A DNA stretch of 64,000 bases from Yuukianura sp. NJ FZ-2021. Its lineage: Eukaryota. Position 1 is the stretch's first letter. Every line of letters begins with the position of its first letter. Shown here one piece after another: positions 1-17,428 of the stretch. The notes under the pieces are model-generated. The model was given only the letters and a program-made list of their open reading frames with translations. It ran no database searches and had not been told where the DNA came from. The stretch covers positions 7,750,001 through 7,814,000 of the forward strand of contig CM102284.1 in NCBI GenBank assembly GCA_046563655.1, given 5' to 3'. The position numbers and the translations under genes are program-made.

Positions 1-3000
1 CTTCAGATGGGCTTCCCGAGGCAAAATATCGGAGTGCAATTTTCAGCTCTCAGAAAGCTCAGAATGACTTTTTGGGGAGTTTTGTATGAAAAAATGAATT
101 TTTTGACAAAAATTGAGCTTAGTTCATTTCAGATGGGCTTTCCGAGGCAACATATCGGAGTGCAATTTTCAGTTCTCAGAAAGCTCAGAATGACTTTTTG
201 GGGAGTTTTGTATGAAAAAATGAATTTTTTGACAAAAATTGAGCTTGGTTCATTTCAGATGGGCTTTCCGAGGCAACATATCGGAGTGCAATTTTCAGTT
301 CTCAGAAAGCTCAGAATGACTTTTTGGGGAGTTTTGTATGAAAAACATGAATTTGTTGGCAAAAATTGAGCTTGGTTCATTTCAGATGGGCTTTCCGAGG
401 CAACATATCGGAGTGCAATTTTCAGTTCTCAGAAAGCTCAGAATGACTTTTTGGGAGTTTTGTATGAAAAACATGAATTTTTTGACACAAATTGAGCTTG
501 GTTTACTTCAGATGGGCTTTCCGTGGCAAAATATCGGAGTGCAATTTTCAGTACTCAGAAAGCTCAGAATGAATTTTTGGGGAGTTTTGTATGAAAAAAA
601 TGAATTTTTTGACAAAAATTGAGCTTGGTTCACTTCAGATGAGCGTTCAGAGACAAAATATCGGAGTGCAATTTTCAGTTCTCAGAAAGCTCAGAATGAC
701 TTTTTAGGGAGTTTTGTATGAGAAAAAATGAATTTTTTGACAAAAATTGAGCTTGGTTCACTTCAGATGGGCTTCCCGAGGCAACATATCGGAGTGCAAT
801 TTTCAGTTCTCAGAAAGCTCAGAATGACTTTTTGGGGAGTTTTGTATGAAAAACATGAATTTGTTGGCAAAAATTGAGCTTGGTTCACTTCAGATGGGCG
901 TTCAGAGACAAAATATCGGAGTGCAATTTTCAGTTCTCAGAAAGCTCAGAATGACTTTTTAGGGAGTTTTGTATGAAAAAAAATGAATTTTTTGACAAAA
1001 ATTGAGCTTGGTTCACTTCAGATGTGCTTCCCGAGGCAACATATCGGAGTGCAATTTTCAGTTCTCAGAAAGCTCAGAATGACTTTTTGGGGAGTTTTGT
1101 ATGAAAAACATGAATTTGTTGGCAAAAATTGAGCTTGGTTCATTTCAGATGGGCTCTCCGAAGCAAAATATTGGAGTGCAATTTTCAGTTCTCAGAAAGC
1201 TCAGAATGACTTTTTGAGGAGTTTTGAATGAAAAAAAAATTAATTTTTTGACAAAAATTGAGCTTGGTTCATTTCACATGGGCTTTCCGAGGCAAAATAT
1301 CAGAGTGCAATTTTCAGCTCTCAGAAGGCTCAGAATGACTTTTTGGGGAGTTTTCAATGAAACAAATGATTTTTTTGACAAAAATTGAGCTTGGTTCACT
1401 TCAGATGGGCTTTCCGAGGCAAAATATCGGAGTGCAATTTTCAGCTCTCAGAAAGCTCAGAATGACTTTTTGGGGAGTTTTGTATGAAAAAATGAATTTT
1501 TTGACAAAAATTGAGCTTAGTTCATTTCAGATGGGCTTTCCGAGGCAACATATCGGAGTGCAATTTTCAGTTCTCAGAAAGCTCAGAATGACTTTTTGGG
1601 GAGTTTTGTATGAAAAAAATGAATTTTTTGACAAAAATTGAGCTTGGTTCATTTCAGATGGGCTTTCCGAGGCAACATATCGGAGTGCAATTTTCAGTTC
1701 TCAGAAAGCTCAGAATGACTTTTTGGGGAGTTTTGTATGAAAAACATGAATTTGTTGGCAAAAATTGAGCTTGGTTCATTTCAGATGGGCTTTCCGAGGC
1801 AACATATCGGAGTGCAATTTTCAGTTCTCAGAAAGCTCAGAATGACTTTTTGGGAGTTTTGTATGAAAAACATGAATTTTTTGACACAAATTGAGCTTGG
1901 TTTACTTCAGATGGGCTTTCCGTGGCAAAATATCGGAGTGCAATTTTCAGTACTCAGAAAGCTCAGAATGAATTTTTGGGGAGTTTTGTATGAAAAAAAT
2001 GAATTTTTTGACAAAAATTGAGCTTGGTTCACTTCAGATGGGCGTTCAGAGACAAAATATCGGAGTGCAATTTTCAGTTCTCAGAAAGCTCAGAATGACT
2101 TTTTAGGGAGTTTTGTATGAGAAAAAATGAATTTTTTGACAAAAATTGAGCTTGGTTCACTTCAGATGGGCTTCCCGAGGCAACATATCGGAGTGCAATT
2201 TTCAGTTCTCAGAAAGCTCAGAATGACTTTTTGGGGAGTTTTGTATGAAAAACATGAATTTGTTGGCAAAAATTGAGCTTGGTTCACTTCAGATGGGCGT
2301 TCAGAGACAAAATATCGGAGTGCAATTTTCAGTTCTCAGAAAGCTCAGAATGACTTTTTAGGGAGTTTTGAATGAAAAAATGAATTTTTTGACAAAAATT
2401 GAGCTTGGTTCACTTCAGATGTGCTTCCCGAGGCAACATATCGGAGTGCAATTTTCAGTTCTCAGAAAGCTCAGAATGACTTTTTGGGGAGTTTTGTATG
2501 AAAAACATGAATTTGTTGGCAAAAATTGAGCTTGGTTCATTTCAGATGGGCTTTCCGAGGCAACATATCGGAGTGCAATTTTCAGTTCTCAGAAAGCTCA
2601 GAATGACTTTTTGGGGAGTTTTGTATGAAAAAAAATGAATTTTTTGACAAAAATTGAGCTTGGTTCATTTCACATGGGCTTTCCGAGGCAACATATCGGA
2701 GTGCAATTTTCAGTTCTCAGAAAGCTCAGAATGACTTTTTGGGGAGTTTTGTATGAAAAAATGAATTTTTTGACAAAAATTGAGCTTGGTTCACTTCAGA
2801 TGGGCTTCCCGAGGCAAAATATCGGAGTGCAATTTTCAGTTCTCAGAAAGCTCAGAATGACTTTTTGGGGAGTTTTGTATGAAAAAATGAATTTTTTGAC
2901 AAAAATTGAGCTTAGTTCATTTCAGATGGGCTTTCCGAGGCAACATATCGGAGTGCAATTTTCAGTTCTCAGAAAGCTCAGAATGACTTTTTGGGGAGTT

Positions 3001-3352
3001 TTGTATGAAAAAAATGAATTTTTTGACAAAAATTGAGCTTGGTTCATTTCAGATGGGCTTTCCGAGGCAACATATCGGAGTGCAATTTTCAGTTCTCAGA
3101 AAGCTCAGAATGACTTTTTGGGGAGTTTTGTATGAAAAACATGAATTTGTTGGCAAAAATTGAGCTTGGTTCATTTCAGATGGGCTTTCCGAGGCAACAT
3201 ATCGGAGTGCAATTTTCAGTTCTCAGAAAGCTCAGAATGACTTTTTGGGAGTTTTGTATGAAAAACATGAATTTTTTGACACAAATTGAGCTTGGTTTAC
3301 TTCAGATGGGCTTTCCGTGGCAAAATATCGGAGTGCAATTTTCAGTACTCAG
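1..3352 (+). repeat. ~127-bp tandem satellite DNA array (segment 1)
   Basis: Head-to-tail monomer AAAATTGAGCTTGGTTCAYTTCAGATGGGCTTYCCGAGGCAAMATATCGGAGTGCAATTTTCAGTTCTCAGAAAGCTCAGAATGACTTTTTGGGGAGTTTTGTATGA(n)TGAATTTTTTGACA. Length is 126-129 bp depending on the A-run. An identical variant block recurs at 338, 1737 and 3132 (~1.4 kb = 11 monomers). Confidence 0.98.
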
Positions 3353-3937
3353 TGAGGGAAAGCTCGGAGGTGAACTCCCCAACGGGCCGACTCGCGGTCA
3401 CCCGAGAACGTCTGACGACGGAAATAAAGGGGCAGGGGGTCACGGGAGCTGTTAGAATATGATTAGTAATTTATTGAACGGACAAATGATACAGTTACGG
3501 CCAATTTTGTAGTAGTAGGAGAGATGAGCGTTCCTGGTCGGATCAACCAGGTATTCCTGGTCTGTCCAGGAAGTCCAGTGGGGGTGAATCGAGGTCAAAT
3601 CCGGGTCAATAGAGGCAGTAGCGGGTCCAGACACGAAGAAAGAAGATGGCTGCTACTGGGAACTGGAGTGACGAGGTCTTCTCCTTGTGAGATGTTGTGG
3701 ACGACTGTGTCCAGAGAAGATGGAGGAGGAAGAAGATGAAACTGCCAGAAGGAGCTGGGGGAAGTTGCTGATGCAATCCTCGGCGACTGTGATTGGCTGC
3801 TGAGTGGACTGGTGTTCTGGCGTCTCCGGAACTGCAGGGGGACAAGAGGGATTGTTGTGCTGCTATTGTTGAGTGGAGCGGAGGAGGACGAGGGAGCCGT
3901 ATAGGCTTTGAGAGGGGTTTGGGGATACCTCCCCACA
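3353..3937 (-). repeat. 3' LTR (585 bp)
   Basis: On the minus strand it reads TGTGGGGAGG...TTCCCTCA and is nearly identical to 15117-16254 once the TRIM is removed. AATAAA on the minus strand at 3470-3475. Confidence 0.95.
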
Positions 3938-4003
3938 GATTCCCAGCGATCAAGGGAGCCGCCACGGCGACAAACCGAGGAACTCCGAAGCGATTCGGGG
4001 AAG

Positions 4004-5239
4004 CTACTGAGATGGTGGAGGGGGATCCTTGGGATGATTTTTCTTTGGTGGTGGGGGACAATTCGCAGAGTTCTCTGCCCACCAACGAGCACGTCGCTGT
4101 TGCCGATTCGGGGCTGGGGGGAAACGTCCTTGTGCAGGAGCTTGGGGAAAACGTCCTTGTGCAGGAGCTTGGGGAAAACGTCCTTGTGCAGGAGCTGGGG
4201 GAACTGGAGCAGCGTTTGAAGGGTCCTGGGGGTTATTCCACGTGACGGTGACTGACGTTGCGCTGGCTGGAACGTATGCGTGGATGGGGATCAGTCCAGG
4301 GGGAACATTCGTTGACTGGAACGTGGAGCTGGAAGCTGCTGCTGAGATGGGGATAGTGATGGAACCGGAAGTGGCTGCTGGAACTGATGATGTGGCTTGG
4401 GGAACTCCTTGTGCTGGGGAAACTGCTTGTGCTGAGGAAGATGATGAAGAGGAATTCGAATTTGGGCGGGAATTTGAGGAATGTGGCCGAATTGATGATG
4501 CTGGAGCCGAATTTTGAGCCAATGGGGGACGAGTAGGATACGGAGCTGGACGAATTGGCCGAGTTAGGATCCGAATTGGTTGAGCCGAGGGGGTAGAGTT
4601 GCGGGATCCAGAATTTTGGGGGGTTTGAGTGTTCAGAGTGACTTTTGACATGTCACGAGCCAAGACGGAGAGGGAACCAGATCCAGAAGTACCAGCTTGA
4701 GGAGGTTTTGGGGGTCCATCCGGGAACTTCAAATCCATAAGCGGGACGACCTTGGCTGCAGCAGACTTCTGGACTTGCGGATTGGATTTCGTCGCAGGAG
4801 CAGAGGGACGACGAAACATCGGTGAATTTTGGGACGAGGGGGGAATCACAACGACCGAAGCAAGCTTTGGACGAGTGACTGGGGGAATAACCATCTCCTG
4901 AAGGCTCTTCTGAGGGGAACGGTGGTTGAAACTGCCAGAGCTATGGGGGGACTGACGATCCAGCTTCTTCGGCGATTTTGGCGGGGATGGAGGAGCGAGC
5001 GGCATGTCCCAATCATCCGGAATCGGATCCACTTGACGCGGAGTAATCGGCGCAGCGATGACAGTCGTAGGGGGCGAAGAAGACGAAGACGGAGATGAGG
5101 AAGAAGAGCCAGGAGAAGCAGTATCACGCGGAGGTGGAGAATTCAGCAGTTCATCTTCAGCGGCCAAGTCTATTTCCGCAATTCCCTCAGAAGCATCATC
5201 CTCTCCTTGTTCCATCAAATCCTCCGGTGGTTGGTCCAT
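4004..5239 (-). CDS. Third (env-position) ORF of the gypsy element, Pro/Ser-rich and predicted disordered, ~411 aa, not env-like
   Basis: Long open frame between pol and the 3' LTR. The ATG (MDQPPEDL) lies 1 nt after a polypyrimidine-CAG splice acceptor (tgttttttatgattttcag|G ATG, AG at 5241-5242). No signal peptide or TM segment is visible. Confidence 0.7.
   Translation of the reverse strand: MDQPPEDLMEQGEDDASEGIAEIDLAAEDELLNSPPPRDTASPGSSSSSPSSSSSPPTTVIAAPITPRQVDPIPDDWDMPLAPPSPPKSPKKLDRQSPHSSGSFNHRSPQKSLQEMVIPPVTRPKLASVVVIPPSSQNSPMFRRPSAPATKSNPQVQKSAAAKVVPLMDLKFPDGPPKPPQAGTSGSGSLSVLARDMSKVTLNTQTPQNSGSRNSTPSAQPIRILTRPIRPAPYPTRPPLAQNSAPASSIRPHSSNSRPNSNSSSSSSSAQAVSPAQGVPQATSSVPAATSGSITIPISAAASSSTFQSTNVPPGLIPIHAYVPASATSVTVTWNNPQDPSNAAPVPPAPAQGRFPQAPAQGRFPQAPAQGRFPPAPNRQQRRARWWAENSANCPPPPKKNHPKDPPPPSQ
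4113..4203. repeat. 27-bp in-frame minisatellite (3.3 copies) within ORF3
   Basis: GCTTGGGGAAAACGTCCTTGTGCAGGA x3, encoding (Q/P)APAQGRFP repeats on the minus strand. Confidence 0.9.
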
Positions 5240-5287
5240 CCTGAAAATCATAAAAAACACAGTATGAGTATTAAATAAAACACTCAG

Positions 5288-8200
5288 TCAGCGCTTTTTA
5301 GGTTTTGTAAGGCGGGAAATTAATGACAGAGCTTTTGTACGTGCCGCGCGCATTGGTTGAGCAGAAATCGCGGGATTTACGCTGGCAGGGGCGCAAATTA
5401 CGGGGTTTTCGCTCGCAACAGGGAGCAGGGAATCCTGTGCGGGTAAAACTGGTGGAACTGGTATTTCTGGGGCGGGGCTTTCTGGGGAAGCATTTTCGAC
5501 ATCATTTTGGGGATCAAAATTTGGGGTCAACTCGGGAAGCGTAAAAGGGCTAATTTCGGGATCTTCAGGGGGCAAACTCGGAATTTCAAGGGGAATTGGA
5601 TCGGGGGTAACTTCTGGAGCCTGTAACGACTGAGGGGTGTCAAAATCATCGTCAGACGACTCACGGGAACTACTGTCAAAATCAGAAACATCATAAAGAC
5701 GCTGGTGGTAAGGTTTTAATCGTTGTACGTTAACGACTGTCTCGTGAGGTTTTCGAGGGGGGACCGAAGATACACGAACAGTTCCATTTGCAAGGACGTC
5801 AATGACCTTGTAAGGGCCAATCCATTTCTTAGTGAACTTCCCGACGTGACCTTTTTTCCTTTGAAAGTTCTGGAGTAGAACTTTCATACCAGCAACGTAG
5901 GTGGGGAAACGAATCTGCATTTGAGCTTTTACTCGTAAGAGCTGTTGCTCACGAGACAACTCATGGGCTACGTTGTTGGCGATGAATAATCTGTCAAAAG
6001 GATCATTAGGGGTCAAATAATCTTGGGGAAGGGGAAACAACTTGTCTACCGGCAAAACCGGCTCCCGACCAAAGACAAGAAAATATGGGGAGAAATTAGT
6101 TACCCGATGTACTGAACAATTTACGGAGAAAACTGCTTTGGGAAGGTGGAGATCCCAATCTTTATGGTTTTCACTTACGAATTTGGCGATGACAGATTTT
6201 ACCGTTCCGTTATGTCTCTCACAGACACCGTTTGACTTGGGATTATAGGCAGTCGTAGAACGGTGGTCAATGGAATGGAGGGCAAGGAAATCCTCAAACT
6301 CTTCGGACTGAAAAACCGTGCCACGGTCTGAGAGAATCATCTTGGGAATACCATGACGATACAGGACGTGTTTGGTAAGGACTTTGATCGCTTGAGCAGA
6401 ATCTGCTGAGGGAACGGGCCAAGCTTCAACGTAACGGGTATGGAGGTCAACTATGGTAAGGATATAGGTATTTCTCCTCGCTGTGATGGGAAATGGACCA
6501 AGGTAATCCACAGCAAGTGCGTTAAAGGGAATGGCGGGAACGTCAAGGCCAACGCTATTAGGGGGAAGAGCAAAGTTCCGTCGATTATGTACTTGACACA
6601 AGTGGCAAGATGTGACAAATTTGACTAAGTCACGGTACATCCGGGGCCAATAAAACCGGGAACGAAGGAGATGCCAGGATTTGTGTAGTCCAAGGTGACT
6701 AAGGGAATCATTGTGGACGGATTCCATGGAGGATTTTCTGAGGGACTTAGGAAGACAAAGACGCCAAAGGTTACCAAATTCTGAGTAGTTCATTTTGTAC
6801 AAAACTCCATCACGCAGACTAAATTCGCTCAACTTTTTCGGTTCCGCTAAGGAGTGGGGTTTACCTAGCTGCTCTGCTTTTAAGTACTCAATTAGGGGTA
6901 GCCATTCTGGCTCTTTAAGTTGGAGTTCCTTCACCTTTGACTCACGAACTTTCCGGGGAGCTTCAGGGGAAACTGCTAAGGACAGAAGATGATGTTCAAT
7001 GGCCAAATGGTCTGTGTCGGAAGGGGCGGGGTCAACGGGGTTTCGGGAAAGCGGGTCCGCATCCGTGTGGATACGGCCACTCTTATGGACAACTGTAAAG
7101 TCGTAGGGCTGGAGGGCTAAGGACCAACGGGAAATTTGGCCATAAGGGTCTTTGAATTTTAGCATGTCACAGAGGGAATGGTGGTCTGTGACAACTTTAA
7201 AATGACGCCCGTATAAATACGGACGAAATTTCTCGACAGCCCAAACAAACGCTTTCATTTCCAATTGGGGGGTCCCAAACTTCGACTCGGAGGGGGAAAG
7301 AGCTCGCGAAGCAAAAGCTACAACTCTCTCTACACCATCTTGAATTTGACAAAGCGTTGCTCCGAAACCAAGTCCAGACGCATCACAATGGACGGACGTC
7401 TCTGCTTCTTCGTCGGGAAACGCTAGGACTGGGGGAGAAGTCAACTTGTCTTTCAAAGTTTGGAACGCTACCTCGGCTTCAGGGGTCCAGAAAAATGGGG
7501 TACCACGTTTTGTAGCTATTATAAGATGGAGGGGACGGGCAATTTCCGCGAAACCTTTAATAAACCTTCTGTAATAACTGCAAAGACCAACAAAGGAACG
7601 GACATTTTTAACAGTCGTGGGGGTAGGGAAATCACGAACTGCTTGGGTTTTCTGGGGATCAACTGCAATTCCTTCACGGGAGACAATGTGACCAAGGAAT
7701 TTCAAAGAATCTTCGGCAAAGTAACACTTTTTGGGTTTTAAACTGAGACCAGCTTTACGGAGAGCACAGAAAATCTGCGCTAAATGGTCCAAGTGTTCGT
7801 CAAAGGAACGGGAGTAACAAACGACATCGTCTAAGTAAACGAGTGCTATGGACCATTTTAAACGACCAAGGACATTGTCAATGAGACGCTGCCAAGTCGC
7901 TGGGGCATTGGTTAATCCAAAGGGCATGACAACGAATTCGTACTGTCCGTCGGGGGTAACGAAGCTGGTTTTCTCTCTGTCCTCGGGTTCCACCTCGACT
8001 TGGTAGTACGCCTGGTCACAATCCATTGAGGAAAAGTACTTGGCACCATTTAAACGATCCAGGGTGTCGTCTATTCGGGGGAGGGGATAGGAATCCTTTC
8101 TTGTCACTGCGTTGACTTTACGAAAGTCAACGCAAAACCGCCAACTTTCGTCGGGCTTTTTAACAAGAAGGACTGGGGAACACCAAGGGCTATCGCTGGG

Positions 8201-8500
8201 GGTAATCGCCTTAAGATCCAAAAGACGCTCGACTTGGTTTTGAATTTCTCTCCGCTCCGTGAAACCTGTTCTATGGGGATTGGATGCTATCGGTTTCGTA
8301 GTTCCTGTGTCAATTTTGTGGGTCGTTAAATGAGTACGGCCAAGAGTTGATGGATCGAAATTAAAAACATCCAAATTTGATACAAGAAAATCCTGCATCT
8401 TTTGGCGCTGTTCAGGGGTTAGGGTTTTGGAGATCTTAAACGCCTCAATCCTCTTTTGCAGTTTCAGAGACGCGATGTCATCCATCATCATCAACTGCAA
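5288..8500 (-). CDS. pol: Pol polyprotein, RT-RNase H-integrase part
   Basis: RT motifs (WRFCVDFRKVN, MPFGLTNAP, YLDD). RNase H (CDASG, TDHHSL, DADPLSR). Integrase HHCC (HNDSLSH...CHLC) and DDE (VDYLG, SDRG, ERHN). GPY/F motif (WIGPYKV). Confidence 0.96.
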   Translation of the reverse strand: MQLMMMDDIASLKLQKRIEAFKISKTLTPEQRQKMQDFLVSNLDVFNFDPSTLGRTHLTTHKIDTGTTKPIASNPHRTGFTERREIQNQVERLLDLKAITPSDSPWCSPVLLVKKPDESWRFCVDFRKVNAVTRKDSYPLPRIDDTLDRLNGAKYFSSMDCDQAYYQVEVEPEDREKTSFVTPDGQYEFVVMPFGLTNAPATWQRLIDNVLGRLKWSIALVYLDDVVCYSRSFDEHLDHLAQIFCALRKAGLSLKPKKCYFAEDSLKFLGHIVSREGIAVDPQKTQAVRDFPTPTTVKNVRSFVGLCSYYRRFIKGFAEIARPLHLIIATKRGTPFFWTPEAEVAFQTLKDKLTSPPVLAFPDEEAETSVHCDASGLGFGATLCQIQDGVERVVAFASRALSPSESKFGTPQLEMKAFVWAVEKFRPYLYGRHFKVVTDHHSLCDMLKFKDPYGQISRWSLALQPYDFTVVHKSGRIHTDADPLSRNPVDPAPSDTDHLAIEHHLLSLAVSPEAPRKVRESKVKELQLKEPEWLPLIEYLKAEQLGKPHSLAEPKKLSEFSLRDGVLYKMNYSEFGNLWRLCLPKSLRKSSMESVHNDSLSHLGLHKSWHLLRSRFYWPRMYRDLVKFVTSCHLCQVHNRRNFALPPNSVGLDVPAIPFNALAVDYLGPFPITARRNTYILTIVDLHTRYVEAWPVPSADSAQAIKVLTKHVLYRHGIPKMILSDRGTVFQSEEFEDFLALHSIDHRSTTAYNPKSNGVCERHNGTVKSVIAKFVSENHKDWDLHLPKAVFSVNCSVHRVTNFSPYFLVFGREPVLPVDKLFPLPQDYLTPNDPFDRLFIANNVAHELSREQQLLRVKAQMQIRFPTYVAGMKVLLQNFQRKKGHVGKFTKKWIGPYKVIDVLANGTVRVSSVPPRKPHETVVNVQRLKPYHQRLYDVSDFDSSSRESSDDDFDTPQSLQAPEVTPDPIPLEIPSLPPEDPEISPFTLPELTPNFDPQNDVENASPESPAPEIPVPPVLPAQDSLLPVASENPVICAPASVNPAISAQPMRAARTKALSLISRLTKPKKR

Positions 8501-10316
8501 GTCCGAGGATTTCGTGCGCTGGGAGGGGGGATTGGGAGAATTGGGAGCTCACATGACCGAATTCGTCTAGGTCACAGAGTACTGAGGACTCTGCGAAGGG
8601 TTCAAAGGTGCCTATGGAGATGTTTTGCAGAAGTTTAACTGGTCGGTCTCCCAAATTCCACAAGAAAGTAACTCCAGCACCATCCTTAAGGGTGGAAATA
8701 AAATTTCCAATGGCGATATGTTTTGCATACTGGAGCTCCTGACGAGGGGAAACAAGAACATCCCCGGTGAAAGGGAGATCTGTCTTGACGCTTACGCGTT
8801 TCATAGTTCTTGGGTTGATGATGATGGACCTGACCAGACGTAGGCACGGAGGGGGCGAAGATTTTTGTGACAAATTCGAGTTACTGACGAAGGAAACTTC
8901 AGAGTCAAGTAACGAAAGGGATTTAGGGGAATCAGACGAATTCTGGGTCATGTCATGAACTAGTTTAGGGGGATTGGCCGTACATGGGGGATTTGACACA
9001 GGTTCTGGATCCGACGCAATGGGAGAGCTGGGGGTATCTGAAACTTGTTCAGTTTCAGACAATGTTAATTTGTTTAGAACAGGGACTTGGGATTTGGGTA
9101 CACAGACATACTCATTTCTGAGGTCTGTGCAGGGGAGTTCACCTTTTACAAGGCGCTCGTTAGCGGGATCCAAGAGAAAACGTTCTGAACGGAGAAAGTC
9201 AGAACCCAAAACGATTTCATTTGAAAGGTGCTGGAAAATGTAGAACGGGTATTGGAATGGGACGCCGTCAATGGAGAAAGAAATCATTGTAGTCTGGGGG
9301 GAATTACAACGGACGTACGAACCAAAGGACAGTTTCACACGAACGGGTTCCACATCAACCGCTTGGGACACGATATTGGGTAATTTTCGGAGAAATTCGG
9401 GGTGGACACAACATAGGGAAGCACCTGTGTCACACAGGACTCGGAGGGTTTGGGTACCGAAGACTACATCAGTGTGGAACGTAGAATGTTGAGTAGAATG
9501 AATTTGGGACATGAATTTAGCCACTGAAATTCCCATAGGAAATTCGGACTCGGGGACTGGGGAATTAATTTGGGACTCATCAACGGGGGTTGTATCTGGG
9601 GTACTGGAATTTGCAGCTAGGATCTCTGGGGAACTATTAACCCAGTCAGCAGTTCTGCCTTGGATCGAGGGGGGATTTCCAAATTTTGAAGTGAGCGAAA
9701 CAGCTTTAGGATCTGGAGCAAAACGACAAATTTCGTCTTTGGGATCAGTTTTCGGATCATAGGGCCAATGAGCAGGGGGACCAACACAAACAGAAGCAGC
9801 TTTTGGAGCGGGAACGGAACATTGAACAAATATTTTCGGATCAGTAGCGTCAGTTTTCGGATCTGGAACACAAATAGGAGCAAGATTAGAACTAGGATAA
9901 ATTTTAGGAGCCGACTTAGGAGCAAAATTAATTTTAGGATCAGTTTTCGGAGCAAAATTAGGATCAGAATTAGGAACTATTGGAGCGTCAGAACAAGGAA
10001 CGGGGAACTTGGTTGTAAGGTTCCCAGCGATCAAAGGTGAAGTAGGGCTGGGATTACATTGGGAACATTTCTGCTGTTGGACAAAAAGAGTTTGCAATTT
10101 GGTAAAGAACTCTTCTAGGGAAAATGGACTTTGAAATTGGGGCTTCCTGCCAAAAGCCTTTAAATTTCTGTGGGTTTTGAAAGTTGGGGATTTGAATTTT
10201 CGATTATTGGAACGTTTGGGACAAGCTCTTATAGGAGCTGGGACCAAATTTTTAGGGATTGAATTGGGAGTTGGTAGAGGCTGTCGTCCCTGCAACGGCA
10301 GCTCTACTGGTTTTCC
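8478..10316 (-). CDS. pol: Pol polyprotein N-terminal part (long spacer + aspartic protease), in the -1 frame relative to gag
   Basis: Retropepsin motifs VLCDTGAS and IVLGSDFL. The frame is open back to the gag end. It joins the RT frame if one extra G in GATGATGATGGATGAC (8482-8483) is removed. Confidence 0.85.
   Translation of the reverse strand, partial: GKPVELPLQGRQPLPTPNSIPKNLVPAPIRACPKRSNNRKFKSPTFKTHRNLKAFGRKPQFQSPFSLEEFFTKLQTLFVQQQKCSQCNPSPTSPLIAGNLTTKFPVPCSDAPIVPNSDPNFAPKTDPKINFAPKSAPKIYPSSNLAPICVPDPKTDATDPKIFVQCSVPAPKAASVCVGPPAHWPYDPKTDPKDEICRFAPDPKAVSLTSKFGNPPSIQGRTADWVNSSPEILAANSSTPDTTPVDESQINSPVPESEFPMGISVAKFMSQIHSTQHSTFHTDVVFGTQTLRVLCDTGASLCCVHPEFLRKLPNIVSQAVDVEPVRVKLSFGSYVRCNSPQTTMISFSIDGVPFQYPFYIFQHLSNEIVLGSDFLRSERFLLDPANERLVKGELPCTDLRNEYVCVPKSQVPVLNKLTLSETEQVSDTPSSPIASDPEPVSNPPCTANPPKLVHDMTQNSSDSPKSLSLLDSEVSFVSNSNLSQKSSPPPCLRLVRSIIINPRTMKRVSVKTDLPFTGDVLVSPRQELQYAKHIAIGNFISTLKDGAGVTFLWNLGDRPVKLLQNISIGTFEPFAESSVLCDLDEFGHVSSQFSQSPLPAHEILGLAVDDDG
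10274..10316 (-). promoter_or_regulatory. Putative -1 programmed ribosomal frameshift signal (G_GAA_AAC + stem-loop)
   Basis: Heptamer GGAAAAC at 10310-10316, just before the gag TAG. It is followed by the hairpin GTAGAG-CTG-C-CGT/TGCAGGG/ACG-A-CAG-C-CTCTAC (10274-10307). The protease ORF is in the -1 frame. Confidence 0.65.
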
Positions 10317-11624
10317 GGAGGCGGTGTTTGTTTAGGAAGGACGGCTGCAGCGATGTTCTGGAGAAGATCCGTCATTGTTCCGAAAGCAGTCATCATCGTC
10401 TTGGTCCAATCAGCATCCGGACGAGGAACATTTTGAGACTGTGCTGGAGGGTTTGGACTGGTTTGCAATGGGCGAGTGTCAATATTTGGGTAGGGACGTT
10501 GAACAGCTTGGCTATAATAGCCTTGCTGCTGGGGGGATACAGGCTGAGGAGGATGGTTTTCTGGTAATGCACGCTGAGTGCCATTGTAACCAGGGAGCCG
10601 CCAAGTAGGGGTACGACAGTGTTTCATAATGTGCCCACTCCGGTTACAGCGATTGCAAATCGGTCGTCCTTCAGCATCTCGATTGTTAATGAACCGCGTT
10701 CTCTGTTGAGCAGGTTGAGCAGGAACTTGGGGGGTAACAGGAACGTTTGTAATTTGTTGGTTCTGGGTAGGGGACGACTGAGGGAACTGCATTGGGGGGT
10801 TAGGGGCAGCTGCCATTTCAAAAGCCTGCATTGAGACTACAGGGGAAGAGCCATCTTTGGGACGGGTATGGACTTCTGCAACTCGCCGTAGAATCTTCTG
10901 AAAGTCGGAGGGGGTTTGAATATTGAGCATTACAAAACCTTTTTCAAGGTCTGCTGGGAGTCCACAGATGAGATATTCAACCTTTCGGCTGTCACTCATT
11001 TTGGGATCCAAACGAGACAAAATAACAATTTTGTCCGCTACGTATTTGTCAATACAGTCACCCAATTTGTAACGTAGGGACTTATTCTGGGCTCGGAAAT
11101 CATCTCTACGCTCTTTAAGGGAAAAATGGGAAATGAACTGATTTTCAAACTCAGTCCAGACAGCATCAGGGTCTTTAGTGGGATCTTCAAGTTGTTCTCG
11201 AAAGTGGGGCCAAATTGAGATGAACCAAGAGCTAGCGACTCCAGTCAAAACTATCGAAGTGGCTCAATGCTCCATAAGATCCGAATCCAGTTCCTCTCAA
11301 ATCGTATTCGTAGCGAGCAAGAAATTCAGCAGGGTCACTCGTTCCATCGTACTTCCGGATGTGTTTGAAAATTTTGATGTCTTGGGTACAAGGGAAGGGG
11401 GCATTAGGAGCCCTATTGGCTTGTGTACCATCGCTGTACACAGAACCAGGAGTAGCTGGTTGCTGCGGATTGTTAGGAACTGGAGGGGGCATGGCAAAAG
11501 TAGGATGGTAGTTTTGTTGTGCTGGCTGCAGAGGAATTGTGGACTGGGATGGGGAAGGGCCTTGTTGTTGCGTTTGACCTTGTACTGGAGGGGAAGACCT
11601 GGGTCTCGCAAAATATGTCAACAT
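10304..11624 (-). CDS. gag: Gag (split by one frameshift near 11248)
   Basis: ORF 11232-11624 has capsid-like KYDGTSDPAEFLARYE. ORF 10304-11248 continues with LTGVASSWF, YLICGL and the CCHC knuckle CNRCNRSGHIMKHC. The break lies in a T4 homopolymer. Confidence 0.88.
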
Positions 11625-11636
11625 TGGGGAATCTCC

Positions 11637-12050
11637 TTAGTATCTTCGTTCTTGCAGACGGGGATTCTCGTATTCAAAGACAAGCCAGCCTTGGGTACTT
11701 GCGTAGTATTTGAAACACCAGCGGTAAATGGGACTGAAGAAGCTCCAATGATAGTACAAGAGTCTAACCAGAAGAGCTAGGCAGTAGTAGGTTTCAGTAC
11801 CGACAAGGACTCCAAGTAGTTCTGCGTAGGCTCGAGGATTCCGTCGTAAGTAGAGAACTGGGGCAACGTGTAGGGCCAGAAAATCAACAAAGACTGAAAA
11901 AGTCGATGCTACACAGGACTGGGTAATTTCTGCAACCAGTAGGGAGAATAGGTACAGGACTTCGGTTAGGAACAAGATTAAACAGCTTGCAAAAAATAAA
12001 GCTGTTGCAGCAATTAGAATAGTTCGGATTAGGGGCCAAGCGATCCACAT
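11637..12050 (-). CDS. Hydrophobic, probably membrane-spanning small ORF (137 aa) directly upstream of gag
   Basis: ATG-initiated. Hydrophobic runs TILIAATALFFASCLILFLTEVLYLFSLLV, TFSVFVDFLALHVAPVLYL and LLGVLVGTETYYCLALLV. Its stop is 12 nt before the gag ATG. Confidence 0.55.
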   Translation of the reverse strand: MWIAWPLIRTILIAATALFFASCLILFLTEVLYLFSLLVAEITQSCVASTFSVFVDFLALHVAPVLYLRRNPRAYAELLGVLVGTETYYCLALLVRLLYYHWSFFSPIYRWCFKYYASTQGWLVFEYENPRLQERRY

Positions 12051-12097
12051 TTGCAGTGGGTTTCACTATTACCTCAACCGCTTTTCAGCGTTTGGGC

Positions 12098-12214
12098 TTA
12101 TTGGAGGAAATTGACAAGGATCGAAATCAAAAAGAATAGGGTAAGGTACTGGACAACAACTGCAATAACTGCTATGAGTATGATCAAAACGATGGCAATG
12201 AAGGGGTGGGACAT
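12098..12214 (-). CDS. 38-aa hydrophobic upstream small ORF (not in the ORF track)
   Basis: Hand translation gives MSHPFIAIVLIILIAVIAVVVQYLTLFFLISILVNFLQ*. It has no charged residue except His and is co-oriented with gag. Confidence 0.45.
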   Translation of the reverse strand: MSHPFIAIVLIILIAVIAVVVQYLTLFFLISILVNFLQ

Positions 12215-12843
12215 CTCTCGGGTCAGTTCAGGGACTCTCTATAATACTTAAGAAATTGGATTAATTAAACAAATACTTTAAGAATTTTAAATAGTTTGAA
12301 CTTACTACTAGAAAAAATGAAATACAAAATTCAAAAATTTATGGGGGAGTACTTTAGAAGCTGCTGTCTAGGGCTATGGTTTCAAAAAAAAGAAACCAAA
12401 ATCCACAAAACAGAACTTAAAATCGAAGAAAGAATAGAACAATAAACAGAAAGATAACGAGCTGTAGAGACGGAGCAGCCAAGCCAAACCAAATTACAAA
12501 ACCGTAGAGCCACAAAGTCAATTCAAAAATTGTCATTTCTGAATTATTTTGAACCACATTGGAAGGAATAGGATTTTAGGAACTTAGATAACTTCAGTAG
12601 ATTTGCCTGCGATTTAAAATCGCAGGAGCGGGAAAATCTCCAAATTCCGAGGATTAGGTAGTCTTCAAGTGAACATACTATTTCTAGTAGCTTTATGAAA
12701 GTTCAAAGTTTTTCAACTTTTCAGAAATTTGGGCAGGGGTTTGGGGTAGCAAAACAACTTTCAATTTTGAAAAGTGGACAAAAATCTTTAAGTTTAATTA
12801 ATTAGGACGAAAACGCAACGTATTTTAGGATTTGGGAACAATT

Positions 12844-14132
12844 GTGGGGCTTAGACGTAAAAGGGCGTATATCGTTGCCAAGAAAATAATTTAATTCCAT
12901 TTGTTGATTCTAAGTGAAAGTGCTAATGTGTGAAAAATGTTGTCGGTCTGTCCGTTCCTCGTTCGCTGGTTCTGAAAGGGTCCAATTTTCTTTTCTTCTG
13001 GTAGTTAGTCCGATCGTAGAAAGTGAAATGCCCAAAACAATTTGGCCAAAAGTGAAATGGTCAGAGGTGAAATGGCCAAAAAGTAAAAAGATCAGAATTG
13101 AAATGGCCAAAAAGTGAAAAGGCCAAAATGTAAAAACGCCAGAATTAAATTGACCAAAAAGTAAAAATGCCAAAAAGTGAACAGACCAAAAAGTGAAATG
13201 GCCAAAATAAGAAAAGATCAGAAAGAGAAAAGATCAGAATTTGGAAAAAAAAAATTATTTTCAGTGGGTAACTCGGATTTTCTTCATTTTTTTTTTACAA
13301 ATACCTATGAACCCCTGACTGTGAAAATATATTTGTTTTTGACCCGCTCTCAAAGGAATTTCGGATTTATAGAATATTTTGAAAATTACAATTTCCCCAT
13401 AAGGGCACATGTAAATTTTTTCTCAAAATAGGTGTTCGCTTATATTTGGTTAAGTTAGGTTACGTTTAATGAGTGACAATGGCGTTATAGCCATTAGGTT
13501 ACGTTTGGTTGTTTCGAAAAATGGGATTTAAAAAAAAAGAGTGATATTTCCCATTTTGAAAATTTTCAAAAAATCAAAATCTTCGAGAGCGGGCCAAAAA
13601 AATATGTATTTTCATAGTCAGGGGTTCACAGGTATTTGTAAAAAAAATGAAGCAAATCCGAGTTATTCATTGAAAATGATATTTTTTTTTCCAAATTCTG
13701 ATCTTTTCACTTTCTGATCTTTTCTTATTTTGGCCATTTCACTTTTTGATCATTTCACTTTTTGGCCATTTCATTTCTGGCGTTTTTACATTTTGGCCTT
13801 TTCACTTTTTGGCCATTTCATTTCTGGTCATTTCACTTTTTGGCCATTTCACTTCTGCCCTTTTCACCTCTGACCATTTCACTTTTGGCCAAATTGTTTT
13901 GGCCAATTAAATTCACATGGAATCAGTCCGATTAACGTTAGCATCAGTCAGGCCTTTTACATTTTCGTGTCCATTACGCAAATAGATAATGTCGTTATGG
14001 ATCTCTGAACTGAATTCTAACTTTCGATACTTTTTTACGTTCATTTCAAATGCAAAAATTGCTTGTTTACAAACTTTTTTGCTAAACAATTTCCGTAGCA
14101 ACGATATACGCCCTTCTTCGTCTAAGCCCCTC
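12844..14132. mobile_element. Non-autonomous TIR DNA transposon (Sola-like by termini and TSD) nested in the gypsy leader
   Basis: ~35-bp TIRs GTGGGGCTTAGACGTAAAAGGGCGTATATCGTTGC / GCAACGATATACGCCCTTCTTCGTCTAAGCCCCTC, flanked by AATT on both sides (12840-12843, 14133-14136). The superfamily call is tentative. Confidence 0.72.
13015..13924. mobile_element. Fold-back/MULE-like non-autonomous element with long modular inverted arms
   Basis: Arms ~13032-13400 and ~13540-13902 are reverse complements built of AAAAGTGAAATGGCC-type sub-repeats. The 8-bp direct repeat AGTCCGAT at 13007-13014 and 13925-13932 is the candidate TSD. Confidence 0.72.
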
Positions 14133-15023
14133 AATTTAAGCCGGTTTCTGAAAAATCCGACTAGTCAGGGGAAAAGTGAAGCCTGCGTACGGTTGTAGTT
14201 GCGGGCTAATAGGAAATCGGAAAAATCTGCCGACTCAGGGAATTAGTCACTTTTGCAAATAAATTTGCAAAAGCGCGAAAATTTCAAACTGTTTTAGATT
14301 TCAAAAAAAATTTGACGGGGGGGTGTTAGGGGTTCTACTTTTTTTAATTTAGGACGTTGTACCAAATTTCAAAAACCAAAATTTCGAAAAACTTTCAATT
14401 TAAGGGACAGGGGGCAATAACTTTTGAAAAAGGGGCCAAAGCTAAGGGGATTAGGAGCTGTGATAGCTGTGGAGCTGTTTTTAGGTAGCTGGGGCGCTGC
14501 GCTATCTTTAAACAAAACTCGAATTTTGAAAAAAACGCTTATTTTGAAAAAAACGCTAAGTTTTTGAAAATTTAAAAAATTTTGGACAGGGGGACGGGTA
14601 TATTTTACAAAAGTTGCTCGGGGGACACGTTTGCTAAAAAAAAAACAAAACAAAACGCGCAAAAGAAAAGAAGGAAACGCTGACCTCGATGTGACCTTGC
14701 CTCACAGGTCAATTGATTGTTGGTTGGAGGCTGACGAAGAAGATGACGTGGTCCGAGGTGACGTGGCCAGGAGTGATGTGGAGCGTGGAAGGGTGTGGAG
14801 CGTGGAATTCGGCTCTACGGCTGCTATGGCTGAAGATGTGGTGTGTGTTGGGTGGTGTGGAGCGTGGCTTTTGGCTGGTACGGCGTGGCTCTCGCTCCGA
14901 ACTCGCTTTTCCAGAAAGATCTGGAAATTATCCAAAAAAAATATTTTAGAAAATTATGAAACAATGAAAAAAATTTCCTAAAAATGAAAAAAATTAGGGT
15001 GGGGTCACGGTGGGTCCTTTGGT

Positions 15024-15114
15024 GGAGCCGGTTGGCTCCGATTGGTATGATTCCGCTTCGGCTGTGTAGAGGTCAAGTGAGGTCACGGGTCTCGATTCCC
15101 GGCTGATGCGCCCA
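15024..15114 (+). ncRNA. Degenerate full-length tRNA-Pro(CGG)-like sequence ending in CCA, whose complement forms the gypsy PBS
   Basis: GTTGG..GGTATGATTC-CGCTTCGG..AGAGGTC..CGGGTCTCGATTCCCGG..CCCA follows eukaryotic tRNA-Pro(CGG) collinearly (comparison from memory). It ends 2 nt from the 5' LTR, so the minus strand reads LTR-AG-TGGGCGCATCAGCCGGGAAT. Confidence 0.7.
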
Positions 15115-15199
15115 CTTGAGGGAAAGCTCGGAGGTGAACTTGTGACGTTCAGGGGTCACATGGCTTGAGAGACAAAGAACGAGAGTGTAGAAAAAATAA

Positions 15200-15274
15200 G
15201 TGACCGAGTGGGATTCGAACCCACGTCTTTCTCCAATCCGGGGAGACTGCACTGCCCTTATGCTACCAGGCCAC
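15200..15274 (-). ncRNA. tRNA-like Pol III cassette in the TRIM 3' LTR
   Basis: GTGGCCTGG TA GCAT-AAGGGCA-GTGC AG TCTCC-CCGGATT-GGAGA AAGAC GTGGG-TTCGAAT-CCCAC TCGGTCAC. D, anticodon and T arms are present, with A box TAGCATAAGGG and perfect B box GGTTCGAATCC, followed by TTATTTTTT. Confidence 0.85.
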
Positions 15275-15388
15275 ATTCTACAAACCTCTCGAAGGATGGA
15301 GCAATTGGAAGGCAGCTATCCCAGCTATCTCTTCCATGCAATCCTCATCCAGTGGCGAGTGGGAATGGGTTTCTTCCCAAACGCCACA

Positions 15389-15400
15389 CCACCCGCCCCT
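15389..15400 (-). promoter_or_regulatory. TRIM polypurine tract
   Basis: AGGGGCGGGTGG immediately before the 3' LTR. Confidence 0.75.
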
Positions 15401-15425
15401 CAAGCCCCCTATTGCCGTATCCCGG

Positions 15426-15437
15426 CGTTGGGCGCCA
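15426..15437 (-). promoter_or_regulatory. TRIM primer-binding site, tRNA-Lys(CTT)
   Basis: TGGCGCCCAACG, 2 nt after the 5' LTR, matches the canonical Lys1,2 PBS start TGGCGCCCAACGTGGGG. Confidence 0.85.
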
Positions 15438-15498
15438 TATGTGACGTTCAGGGGTCACATGGCTTGAGAGACAAAGAACGAGAGTGTAGAAAAAATAA

Positions 15499-15573
15499 GT
15501 GACCGAGTGGGATTCGAACCCACGTCTTTCTCCAATCCGGGGAGACTGCACTGCCCTTATGCTACCAGGCCAC
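15499..15573 (-). ncRNA. tRNA-like Pol III cassette in the TRIM 5' LTR
   Basis: Identical copy of 15200-15274, offset by 299 bp. Confidence 0.85.
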
Positions 15574-16254
15574 ATTCTACAAACCTCTCGAAGGATGGAG
15601 CAATTGGAAGGCAGCTATCCCAGCTATCTCTTCCATGCAATCCTCATCCAGTGGCGAGTGGGAATGGGTTTCTTCCCAAACGCCACAAACTCCCCAACGG
15701 GCCGACTCGCGGTCACCCGAGAACGTCTGACGACGGAAATAAAGGGGCAGGGGGTCACGGGAGCTGTTAGAATATGATTAGTAATTTATTGAACGGACAA
15801 ATGATACAGTTACGGCCAATTTTGTAGTAGTAGGAGAGATGAGCGGTCCTGGTCGGATCAACCAGGTATTCCTGGTCTGTCCAGGAAGTCCAGTGGGGGT
15901 GAATCGAGGTCAAATCCGGGTCAATAGAGGCAGTAGCGAGTCCAGACACGAAGAAAGAAGATGGCTGCTACTGGGAACTGGAGTGACGAGGTCTTCTCCT
16001 TGTGAGATGTTGTGGACGACTGTGTCCAGAGAAGATGGAGGAGGAAGAAGATGAAACTGCCAGAAGGAGCTGGGGGAAGTTGCTGATGCAATCCTCGGCG
16101 ACTGTGATTGGCTGCTGAATTGGAGCTGGTGGTCTGGCGTCTCCGGAACTGCAGGGGGACAAGAGGGATTGTTGTGCTGCTATTGTTGAGTGGAGCGGAG
16201 GAGGACGAGGGAGCCGTATAGGCTTTGAGAGGGGTTTGGGGATACCTCCCCACA

Positions 16255-16298
16255 TCAGAAAGCTCAGAATGAATTTTTGGGGAGTTTTGTATGAAAAA
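16255..16298 (+). repeat. 44-bp satellite remnant between the gypsy and HINE insertions
   Basis: TCAGAAAGCTCAGAATGAATTTTTGGGGAGTTTTGTATGAAAAA continues the monomer interrupted at 3352. Confidence 0.95.
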
Positions 16299-17428
16299 CA
16301 AGGTAGGGCAATGCTCAAGGGTTGAGCATAGGTCTTCTGGAGGCAGTGGACAATTGATACGGTTTTTACACCCGCTGTCCGCAAACGCAAGAAAAACGAT
16401 AAGAGACCGTTTTCACGAGATTTATGCAACGAAACGTGGCTCATAATTTTCAGTGGAGATATGGTTCCTTTTTGTGCATGAGTTGACTCATCAAGACTAC
16501 GTTGATAATTTTACTGTTTAATTGCACCAAAATCATTTTCTAATTGTAAGTTCCAAAACATCTGCACTGAAATAATGTTCATATTTTTTGTTGAGTAAAA
16601 TGCACAAATGTCAATGTTGTCATGACAATATAGCACACACAGTGTTAACATAGCTGCACTAAAATTATGGTGTTAAACAAGTTGCACAACTGTTCCGCGG
16701 TATGGACAACTTGCTACGTAAAATGGTTTGCTTATAATGAACATTGTTTATGATAAATGTGCAATTGTTATCAAATATGCACAAATTGGTAGTATTAACG
16801 TACATTACCCAGCGTCAAAATAACTGCGCAATTCGACATTTATGTGCATCTACTTATAAATGTGCACAAAGTTGAACGTTGAGTAGCAGGCCTCGAATAT
16901 AGCTTTTTTAAAATCAAAATCAGTTCAAATACATGCACCATGTGTTAAATCAAGTGCATAAGTAATAGAATCGGATATCGCTTGTTCAAATCAAAATTAT
17001 AGAAATTTCTTGTAAAGGCCAAAATTGACACCTTTTATACACTATTCAGATATTAAACATTTAAGTCGGATTTTCTACCCTCTGATCAGTCTTAATTTAA
17101 CAACGTAACTAAACATACTACCAGAAAATGACCAGATCAAAACTCCGTTGTTTATAAATACTTTGAGTGCAATCGAAACCAAAACTGTTTTGCGGAGCCA
17201 CGATACTGCGGGTACGTAAAGTAGCCGCCCAATTCTACGTTGTTAATGTACGACTTTAAGTGCAATGTAGACCTAATGAAAACACTTAAGCGATACAAGA
17301 CACCCCGTCAATAATGGAGGTAATGTTTGAGCGCAAGTTGTCCTAAAAAACGTTACGGACAGACAGACAGACAAAGTCGTATCAATAGTCTTCTTCAGCA
17401 TGTCGTAGACATGCGTCTCCAGAAGACT
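16299..17428 (-). mobile_element. Helentron-associated non-autonomous element (HINE / DINE-1-like)
   Basis: 11-bp subterminal inverted repeats GTCTTCTGGAG (16332-16342) / CTCCAGAAGAC (17417-17427), a partial inverted subTIR copy and a (CTGT)n microsatellite (17357-17373) near the 5' end. 3' stem-loop ATGCTCAA-nnn-TTGAGCAT (16311-16329) and CTTGTT end. Inserted in the satellite A/T run without a clear TSD. Confidence 0.85.

Follow-up and report, generated by a model that had tools for sequence, protein, structure and literature searches.

Reverse transcriptase has been seen to copy its primer tRNA past position 58 in mutant cells and in rare, aberrant DNAs of retroviruses, and such copying has been viewed as a dead end. 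The tRNA that normally primes MMLV is tRNA-Pro. When the stop at m1A58 or at position 54 is missing, plus-strand synthesis continues into the tRNA, and in lentiviruses complementarity extends beyond a primer-binding site (PBS) of 18 nt to the base before m5Um54, the second stop of reverse transcription (excerpted text of PMC8599865). Reverse-transcribed tRNAs of nearly full length have turned up within viral genomes or attached to the ends of retroviral LTRs. Cases in the excerpted sections of PMC12220202 include an MMLV circle with a tRNA-Gly lodged between its LTRs (Colicelli and Goff 1986, cited in PMC12220202), HIV variants with 63-65 nt of tRNA-Asp or tRNA-Glu, and a tRNA-Gly beside an HIV provirus end. 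The extended PBS of Ty1 consists of a 10-nt PBS and boxes 0, 1, and 2.1, which are complementary to other parts of tRNAiMet (PMC3592414, in the sections excerpted). Further, TRIMs of the Helenus/Cassandra type ('TRIMp3') are LTR elements that carry tRNA- or 5S-like sequences (excerpts of PMC10886601).

Next to the 5' LTR of a Ty3/gypsy retrotransposon, we identified a decayed, family-wide DNA copy of a tRNA-Pro(CGG)-like body that continues the PBS. Its origin is most likely read-through of the primer tRNA, a reading that we hold with moderate confidence. The stretch resembles the LTR-joined tRNAs of retroviruses in being a near-full-length tRNA complement with its CCA end abutting the U5/LTR end. 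The retroviral molecules are made by reverse transcriptase copying the tRNA beyond the usual 18 nt (both points from the excerpts of PMC12220202), and we infer an origin by the same route here. However, the retroviral cases are described in those excerpts as rare aberrant single molecules, whereas the copy reported here occupies the normal Ty3/gypsy PBS position, is present family-wide in two organisms, and has decayed. As in Ty1 (PMC3592414, excerpted sections), the element RNA is complementary to a tRNA's T and D regions immediately downstream of its PBS. Ty1, which is of the copia type, has three short boxes, whereas the likeness reported here, from sequence alone, is collinear with a tRNA over about 55 nt and includes the anticodon arm. 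The PBS complement extends into the T loop, as in the lentiviruses, but the lentiviral extension described in the excerpts of PMC8599865 adds only four bases and the likeness here reaches the D loop. The Helenus/Cassandra TRIMs are also LTR retroelements with a tRNA-like sequence, and such a member is nested within the 5' LTR at 15141-15687. As far as the excerpts of PMC10886601 describe it, the tRNA-like unit of these TRIMs lies within the LTR in sense orientation, has a terminator, and is unrelated to the PBS. In contrast, the tRNA-like stretch studied here is in antisense orientation, falls outside the LTR, and joins the PBS without a break.

The window (the whole 64-kb stretch of DNA analysed) is made up of a 127-bp satellite array at 1-3352 and 17429-64000, with a sole interruption at 3353-17428. 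A minus-strand LTR retrotransposon of the Ty3/gypsy type makes up the bulk of this interruption and has two LTRs with TG..CA ends, a 4-bp target-site duplication (TCAG) in the satellite flanks, and the order gag-PR-RT-RNase H-IN. Its 3' LTR (3353-3937, minus strand) borders on the satellite, as read at the junctions. This LTR is 98.9% identical over 567 nt to positions 15688-16254, and its first 24 nt match 15117-15140 at every position (24/24). Both of these segments belong to the 5' LTR (15117-16254, minus strand), which has the nested TRIM inside it. The coding region for gag, protease, and RT-RNase H-integrase (4004-12062, minus strand), defined by the list of open reading frames and by Pfam, contains several broken frames and has matches to RVT_1, RT_RNaseH_2, Integrase_H2C2, rve, gag-asp_proteas, and Retrotrans_gag. 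In a collection of 5.8 billion proteins, the nearest pol relatives are only about 50% identical and derive from metagenome contigs and from a pseudoscorpion, ticks, and a green alga. Searching viral contigs by protein pattern revealed no related elements. A 13-sequence pol alignment run against viral contigs recovered two distant gypsy elements (L167 and L168, 34-37% identity), and ARAGORN at default settings found no tRNA in either of them.

Several other features of the interruption were noted. After pol, with one in-frame stop between, the minus strand has a 427-aa open reading frame (4004-5287) without a Pfam match. It includes tandem repeats of 27 nt at 4110-4203 and might represent a third open reading frame or a read-through extension. 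Within the 3-kb leader, positions 13026-13908 contain two inverted blocks of 16-nt tandem repeats, each about 360 nt long and 84% alike, which could form a very long hairpin in the element RNA. Between the 5' LTR and the resumed satellite is an AT-rich, non-satellite insert of about 1.1 kb (16301-17428). This insert has imperfect terminal inverted repeats (16332-16366 versus 17373-17427) and looks like a non-autonomous DNA transposon.

The nested Helenus-type TRIM (15141-15687, minus strand) was delimited by its two 248-nt LTRs, which are 100% identical, by Rfam and ARAGORN, and by its junctions. Its identical LTRs suggest a recent insertion. The element is short, with a 51-nt internal part that holds a PBS-like TGGCGCCCAACGCCGGGA and a purine tract, and it is flanked by a 4-bp target-site duplication (AACT). 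Each LTR carries a tRNA-like unit in sense orientation (Rfam tRNA, 31.4 bits, with an ARAGORN match), which is followed at once by a T6 run. According to the excerpts of PMC10886601, Helenus TRIMs have 4-bp target-site duplications in animals, and Gypsy elements are presumed to mobilise them. In all four of the DNA runs compared below, contig depth over 15166-15249, the 3' half of the TRIM tRNA-like unit, is 20 to 40 times that of neighbouring positions, and many loose contig ends fall at 15224 and 15228. This 3' half is common to a very abundant host SINE or tRNA-related repeat.

In element sense, the 5' LTR terminates in ...CCCTCA at 15117 and is followed by an AG spacer (15115-15116, minus strand), as determined from the sequence and the junction reading. 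The PBS, TGGGCGCATCAGCCGGGA, starts two bases past the LTR end and is read from 15114 to 15097 on the minus strand, which is where the earlier note had placed it. It begins with TGG at 15114 and is complementary to a tRNA 3' end. The same note had described this PBS as an imperfect hybrid of Pro and Gly types, and comparison with 95 distinct non-host tRNAs agrees with that description. The best fit is to tRNA-Gly with a GCC or UCC anticodon (17/18 with one window base skipped), certain tRNA-Pro genes match at 16/18, and the 18-mer has no perfect match among the 95. The PBS is also one base longer than the corresponding part of any of these tRNAs. The 16-mer at 15094-15109 is identical to the 3' end, from T loop to acceptor strand, of seven tRNA-Gly genes with GCC or UCC anticodons, found at 6 of 9 newly fetched loci. 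The T arm of a real tRNA-Pro gene can be identical to that of a tRNA-Gly gene (L031, L170), so it is conceivable that the first 18 nt changed later towards a tRNA-Gly-type primer.

The 17-mer at 15094-15110 occurs at a minimum of 120 metagenome loci, nearly all of which are chance matches in bacterial coding DNA. Three tRNA-like remnants with this 17-mer are among the loci listed (L078, L107, and L118); the at least 120 loci listed include no intact tRNA that ends in the 17-mer and no further copy of the element. The metagenome contig L118 is eukaryote-like and carries ten tRNA genes. Its tRNA-Gly(GCC) at 905-975 has a 20-mer in common with the window, including the unusual TCTCGATT T loop, and a separate tRNA-Gly 3' remnant is present at 5089-5105.

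Beyond the PBS, the plus strand has a tRNA-Pro-like body at 15041-15096 with a D loop, an anticodon arm with CGG, a variable region, and a T arm, as delimited by nhmmer, Smith-Waterman comparison, alignments, and a flank test. The tRNA-Pro references were fetched from viral contigs with a pattern derived from the window itself (15044-15061, one optional gap). This pattern retrieved 42 loci, and ARAGORN identified tRNA-Pro(UGG) genes at 28 of them (20 distinct). These genes are mostly on giant-virus-MAG contigs, and all reference tRNAs are from giant-virus-MAG and metagenome contigs. A profile of the 20 tRNA-Pro genes matched 15041-15105 on the plus strand with nhmmer (17.7 bits, E 1.4e-4), covering profile positions 14-67 of 72. 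This was the only match above the inclusion threshold on both strands of the 64-kb window (128 kb in total).

Because the Pro references had been picked with a window-derived pattern, two controls were run. In the first, 15020-15096 was compared by Smith-Waterman with 82 distinct tRNAs covering many isotypes, and the likeness proved Pro-specific, with a score of 41 to tRNA-Pro versus 26 to the best non-Pro tRNA. Dinucleotide shuffles of the same segment had a mean score of 20.6 and a maximum of 32, and none of 300 reached 41. In the second control, the pattern positions were left out. The remaining segment, 15062-15096, scored 29 against a shuffle mean of 13.2, a score reached by 0 of 2000 shuffles, and it ranked top among 5148 windows taken from both strands of the whole element. 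The 5' flank (15020-15043) resembles tRNA only at chance level, as 728 of 2000 shuffles equalled its score. This flank includes a perfect 6-bp hairpin, GGAGCC-GGTT-GGCTCC (15024-15039, in a part delimited at 15024-15040 and assigned to neither strand), which had been taken for the tRNA 5' end. The earlier note had read about 90 nt as tRNA-Pro from the 5' end to the CCA. Likeness to tRNA-Pro is upheld for about 15041-15096, but it does not extend to the 5' end. The motifs quoted for the tRNA-like reading (GGTATGATTC, CGCTTCGG, and GGTCTCGATTCC) are all present in the sequence, as are the hairpin and the 10-nt duplication (15070-15089, with GAGGTCA-AGT-GAGGTCA at 15070-15086).

Compared to real tRNA-Pro genes, the body has one base fewer in the anticodon stem, the 10-nt duplication, which falls in the variable region, and a T loop of 8 nt. 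Uninterrupted blocks of identity to real tRNA-Pro remain in the D loop (11 nt), in the anticodon stem (5 nt, or 8 nt if the anticodon is CGG), and in the 7-nt AGAGGTC. The T-arm complement runs directly into the PBS, and the collinear tRNA complement extends past tRNA position 58. The strand antisense to the element is a decayed copy of a tRNA with a Pro(CGG)-type body; it begins at about tRNA position 14, ends with the CCA, and keeps register with the PBS.

The stretch is not a working tRNA gene. The Rfam tRNA model RF00005 did not match it on either strand at E<=10, whether 15005-15125 (121 bases) or 14900-15700 (801 bases) was searched. This model has a gathering score of 29 bits, and the tRNA-like units of the nested TRIM reach their 31.4 bits in the same searches. 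The Infernal-type check proposed in the earlier note came out negative in this respect. ARAGORN gave no result at default settings, and relaxing its thresholds to 60% gave none in register. The complement of the 3' acceptor strand CTGATGC is absent upstream, and an acceptor stem is therefore lacking. The stretch folds no better than its shuffles (z -0.24 on the plus strand and -0.13 on the minus strand). A covariance model specific to tRNA-Pro, whose RNAalifold consensus is without a D stem, matched 15026-15105 (15.0 bits, rough E 0.038). This match was rejected on account of its acceptor pairing, which is out of register: the model pairs AGCCGG with CCGGCT and ends the 'tRNA' at 15105, not at 15114.

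Pol III promoters follow an A-box and B-box consensus. The 8-nt T loop of the stretch is B-box-like, and its extra base is kept in all variants listed. On the plus strand, a T4 run first occurs about 150 nt inside the LTR, so there is no Pol III terminator nearby, and a unit of A and B boxes with a T-run terminator shortly past the 3' end was not found. These features bear on a proposal that the element would transcribe its own antisense primer. According to this proposal, Pol III would transcribe the plus strand into a private primer, an RNA resembling a tRNA and perfectly complementary to the PBS. The strand, the encoded CCA, and the A- and B-box-like motifs are present. The nested TRIM also demonstrates that other LTR elements in this genome carry Pol III-type tRNA-like units, and TRIMs with such units have been described (PMC10886601, in the excerpts). 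However, the stretch has no match from the Rfam tRNA model or from ARAGORN, and it has no acceptor stem in register, which leaves 3'-end processing at 15114 with nothing to act on. Likewise, the T loop has 8 nt in all variants listed, the Pro-specific model places the tRNA end at 15105, and the first T4 run is distant. Moreover, in the account given in section 16 of PMC10886601, the tRNA-like part of the Helenus TRIM LTR has no complementarity to the PBS. This second alternative of the earlier note is not supported by these comparisons, and we regard a self-encoded primer as extremely improbable.

Several of the same results might be read as signs of a chance or compositional resemblance, in which an ordinary PBS is followed by an unrelated leader. 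The missing Rfam match at E<=10, the lack of an in-register ARAGORN result, folding no better than that of shuffles, and the chance-level 5' flank would all fit this explanation, as would the fact that the isotype was picked after the sequence had been seen. It is difficult to reconcile with the nhmmer E value and the collinear register of the match, with observed scores that none of the 300 and 2000 shuffles matched, with the top rank of 15062-15096 across the element, and with the 42 loci retrieved by the 18-nt pattern from the window, since ARAGORN identified tRNA-Pro genes at 28 of them. Chance resemblance is already disfavoured, and we consider it quite improbable.

The leader of the element was found in five DNA runs, and the contigs of four of these, from two organisms and two studies, were compared. 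Contigs of all four runs cover 14998-15123. In organism B, a 166-nt contig spans 14951-15109 with six other letters and six gap letters. None of the 12 joints listed skips the tRNA-like stretch. Among the variants listed, those inside 15024-15116 are a C>T at 15091, which leaves the extra T-loop base in place so that the loop still has 8 nt, and a G inserted after 15076. The stretch has one substitution row against about four expected from the upstream density, among the rows listed, and this difference is not significant. Coverage in all four runs and both organisms indicates that the stretch is family-wide and not a one-off insertion. The tRNA-like stretch belongs to the retrotransposon family. 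The absence of the extension from other copies had been put forward as the mark of a one-off SINE or pseudogene insertion, but the extension is present in contigs of all four runs.

An insertion could still have happened earlier, with a SINE or a tRNA pseudogene entering the leader of the family ancestor in antisense orientation and its 3' end becoming, or abutting, the PBS. In favour of such an insertion, the genome contains a very abundant tRNA-related repeat, to judge from the 20- to 40-fold depth over 15166-15249, tRNA-like sequences are carried in the LTRs of the nested TRIM, and tRNA-Gly-like 3' remnants with the same 17-mer are present in metagenome contigs (L078 and L107/L118). For an unrelated insertion, however, a CCA end exactly two bases from the LTR end would be a coincidence. 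There is also no target-site duplication and no poly(A) or other tail around 15024-15114, and the likeness of the stretch to the tRNA-like sequence of the TRIM is confined to the T loop (score 16). We consider an ancestral insertion of this kind improbable.

Read-through of the primer tRNA is the most likely explanation of the arrangement. In the family ancestor, plus-strand strong-stop synthesis would have failed to halt at tRNA position 58 and would have continued through the primer tRNA while it was still joined to the minus strand, and the extra tRNA copy would have been kept between the PBS and the leader. A copy made and retained in this way would be expected to lie antisense to the element, to be collinear with the tRNA, and to have its CCA end in exact register with the end of the LTR, as is seen here. 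The CCA end of the tRNA-like strand, at 15114, coincides with the point at which the 3' end of the primer anneals. The first alternative of the earlier note, that reverse transcriptase copied the primer past position 58 and that the copy was kept, is favoured by this orientation and register and by the family-wide presence of the stretch. It fares less well for the 5' part and for a single source tRNA. The 5' 20 nt are at chance level and do not support copying as far as the tRNA 5' end. Further, plain read-through predicts one tRNA for both the PBS and the body, yet the PBS fits Gly slightly better than Pro (17/18 versus 16/18). A read-through origin, any current role in priming, and a possible later shift to a Gly-type primer are what we infer from the locus. 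At most, the present-day stretch might offer the primer tRNA a longer annealing surface that includes complements of the T arm, the anticodon arm, and the D loop.

Selection may have maintained such a surface. In this explanation, which is compatible with a read-through origin, the stretch would act as an extended primer-binding platform that helps, with its complements of the T arm, the anticodon arm, and the D loop, to select and anneal the primer. The survival of uninterrupted blocks of identity to tRNA-Pro (11, 5 or 8, and 7 nt), the T-arm complement contiguous with the PBS, and the occurrence of the stretch in many copies from two organisms are in line with this idea. Precedents are provided by Ty1, with boxes 0, 1, and 2.1 downstream of its 10-nt PBS (PMC3592414, as excerpted), and by lentiviral genomes, which remain complementary as far as the base that precedes position 54 (PMC8599865, as excerpted). 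However, the one substitution row against about four expected, among the rows listed, is not significant evidence of constraint, a long duplex would be interrupted by indels of -1, +10, and +1, and the 3' end fits Gly at least as well as Pro, although the body is Pro-like. The broken frames make this copy uninformative on activity. We regard selection for an extended platform as possible but rather unlikely.

Extended PBS complementarity and tRNA read-through products are already known. In the open-access literature searched, no LTR-retrotransposon family, Ty3/gypsy families included, was described in which the complement of a tRNA body is fixed beside the PBS. In its furthest form, the proposal would be that a near-whole tRNA complement, inherited as a read-through product, has been kept as a working part of the leader, a primer-docking platform of about 70 nt. 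Given the identical T arms of tRNA-Pro and tRNA-Gly genes, such a platform may have allowed a switch from a Pro-type to a Gly-type primer. We consider this combined proposal doubtful. A bolder form, in which the antisense strand supplies its own primer, has no structural support.

For genome annotation, stretches of this kind are open to being mistaken for tRNA pseudogenes or SINE fragments. The mixture of Pro and Gly characters, if borne out by the tRNAs of the host, would be a natural record of primer switching. If the read-through origin is true, it would offer a natural explanation of how the tRNA-complementary boxes beside some primer-binding sites could have arisen, and it would mean that a read-through product can be inherited and tolerated in a retrotransposon family.
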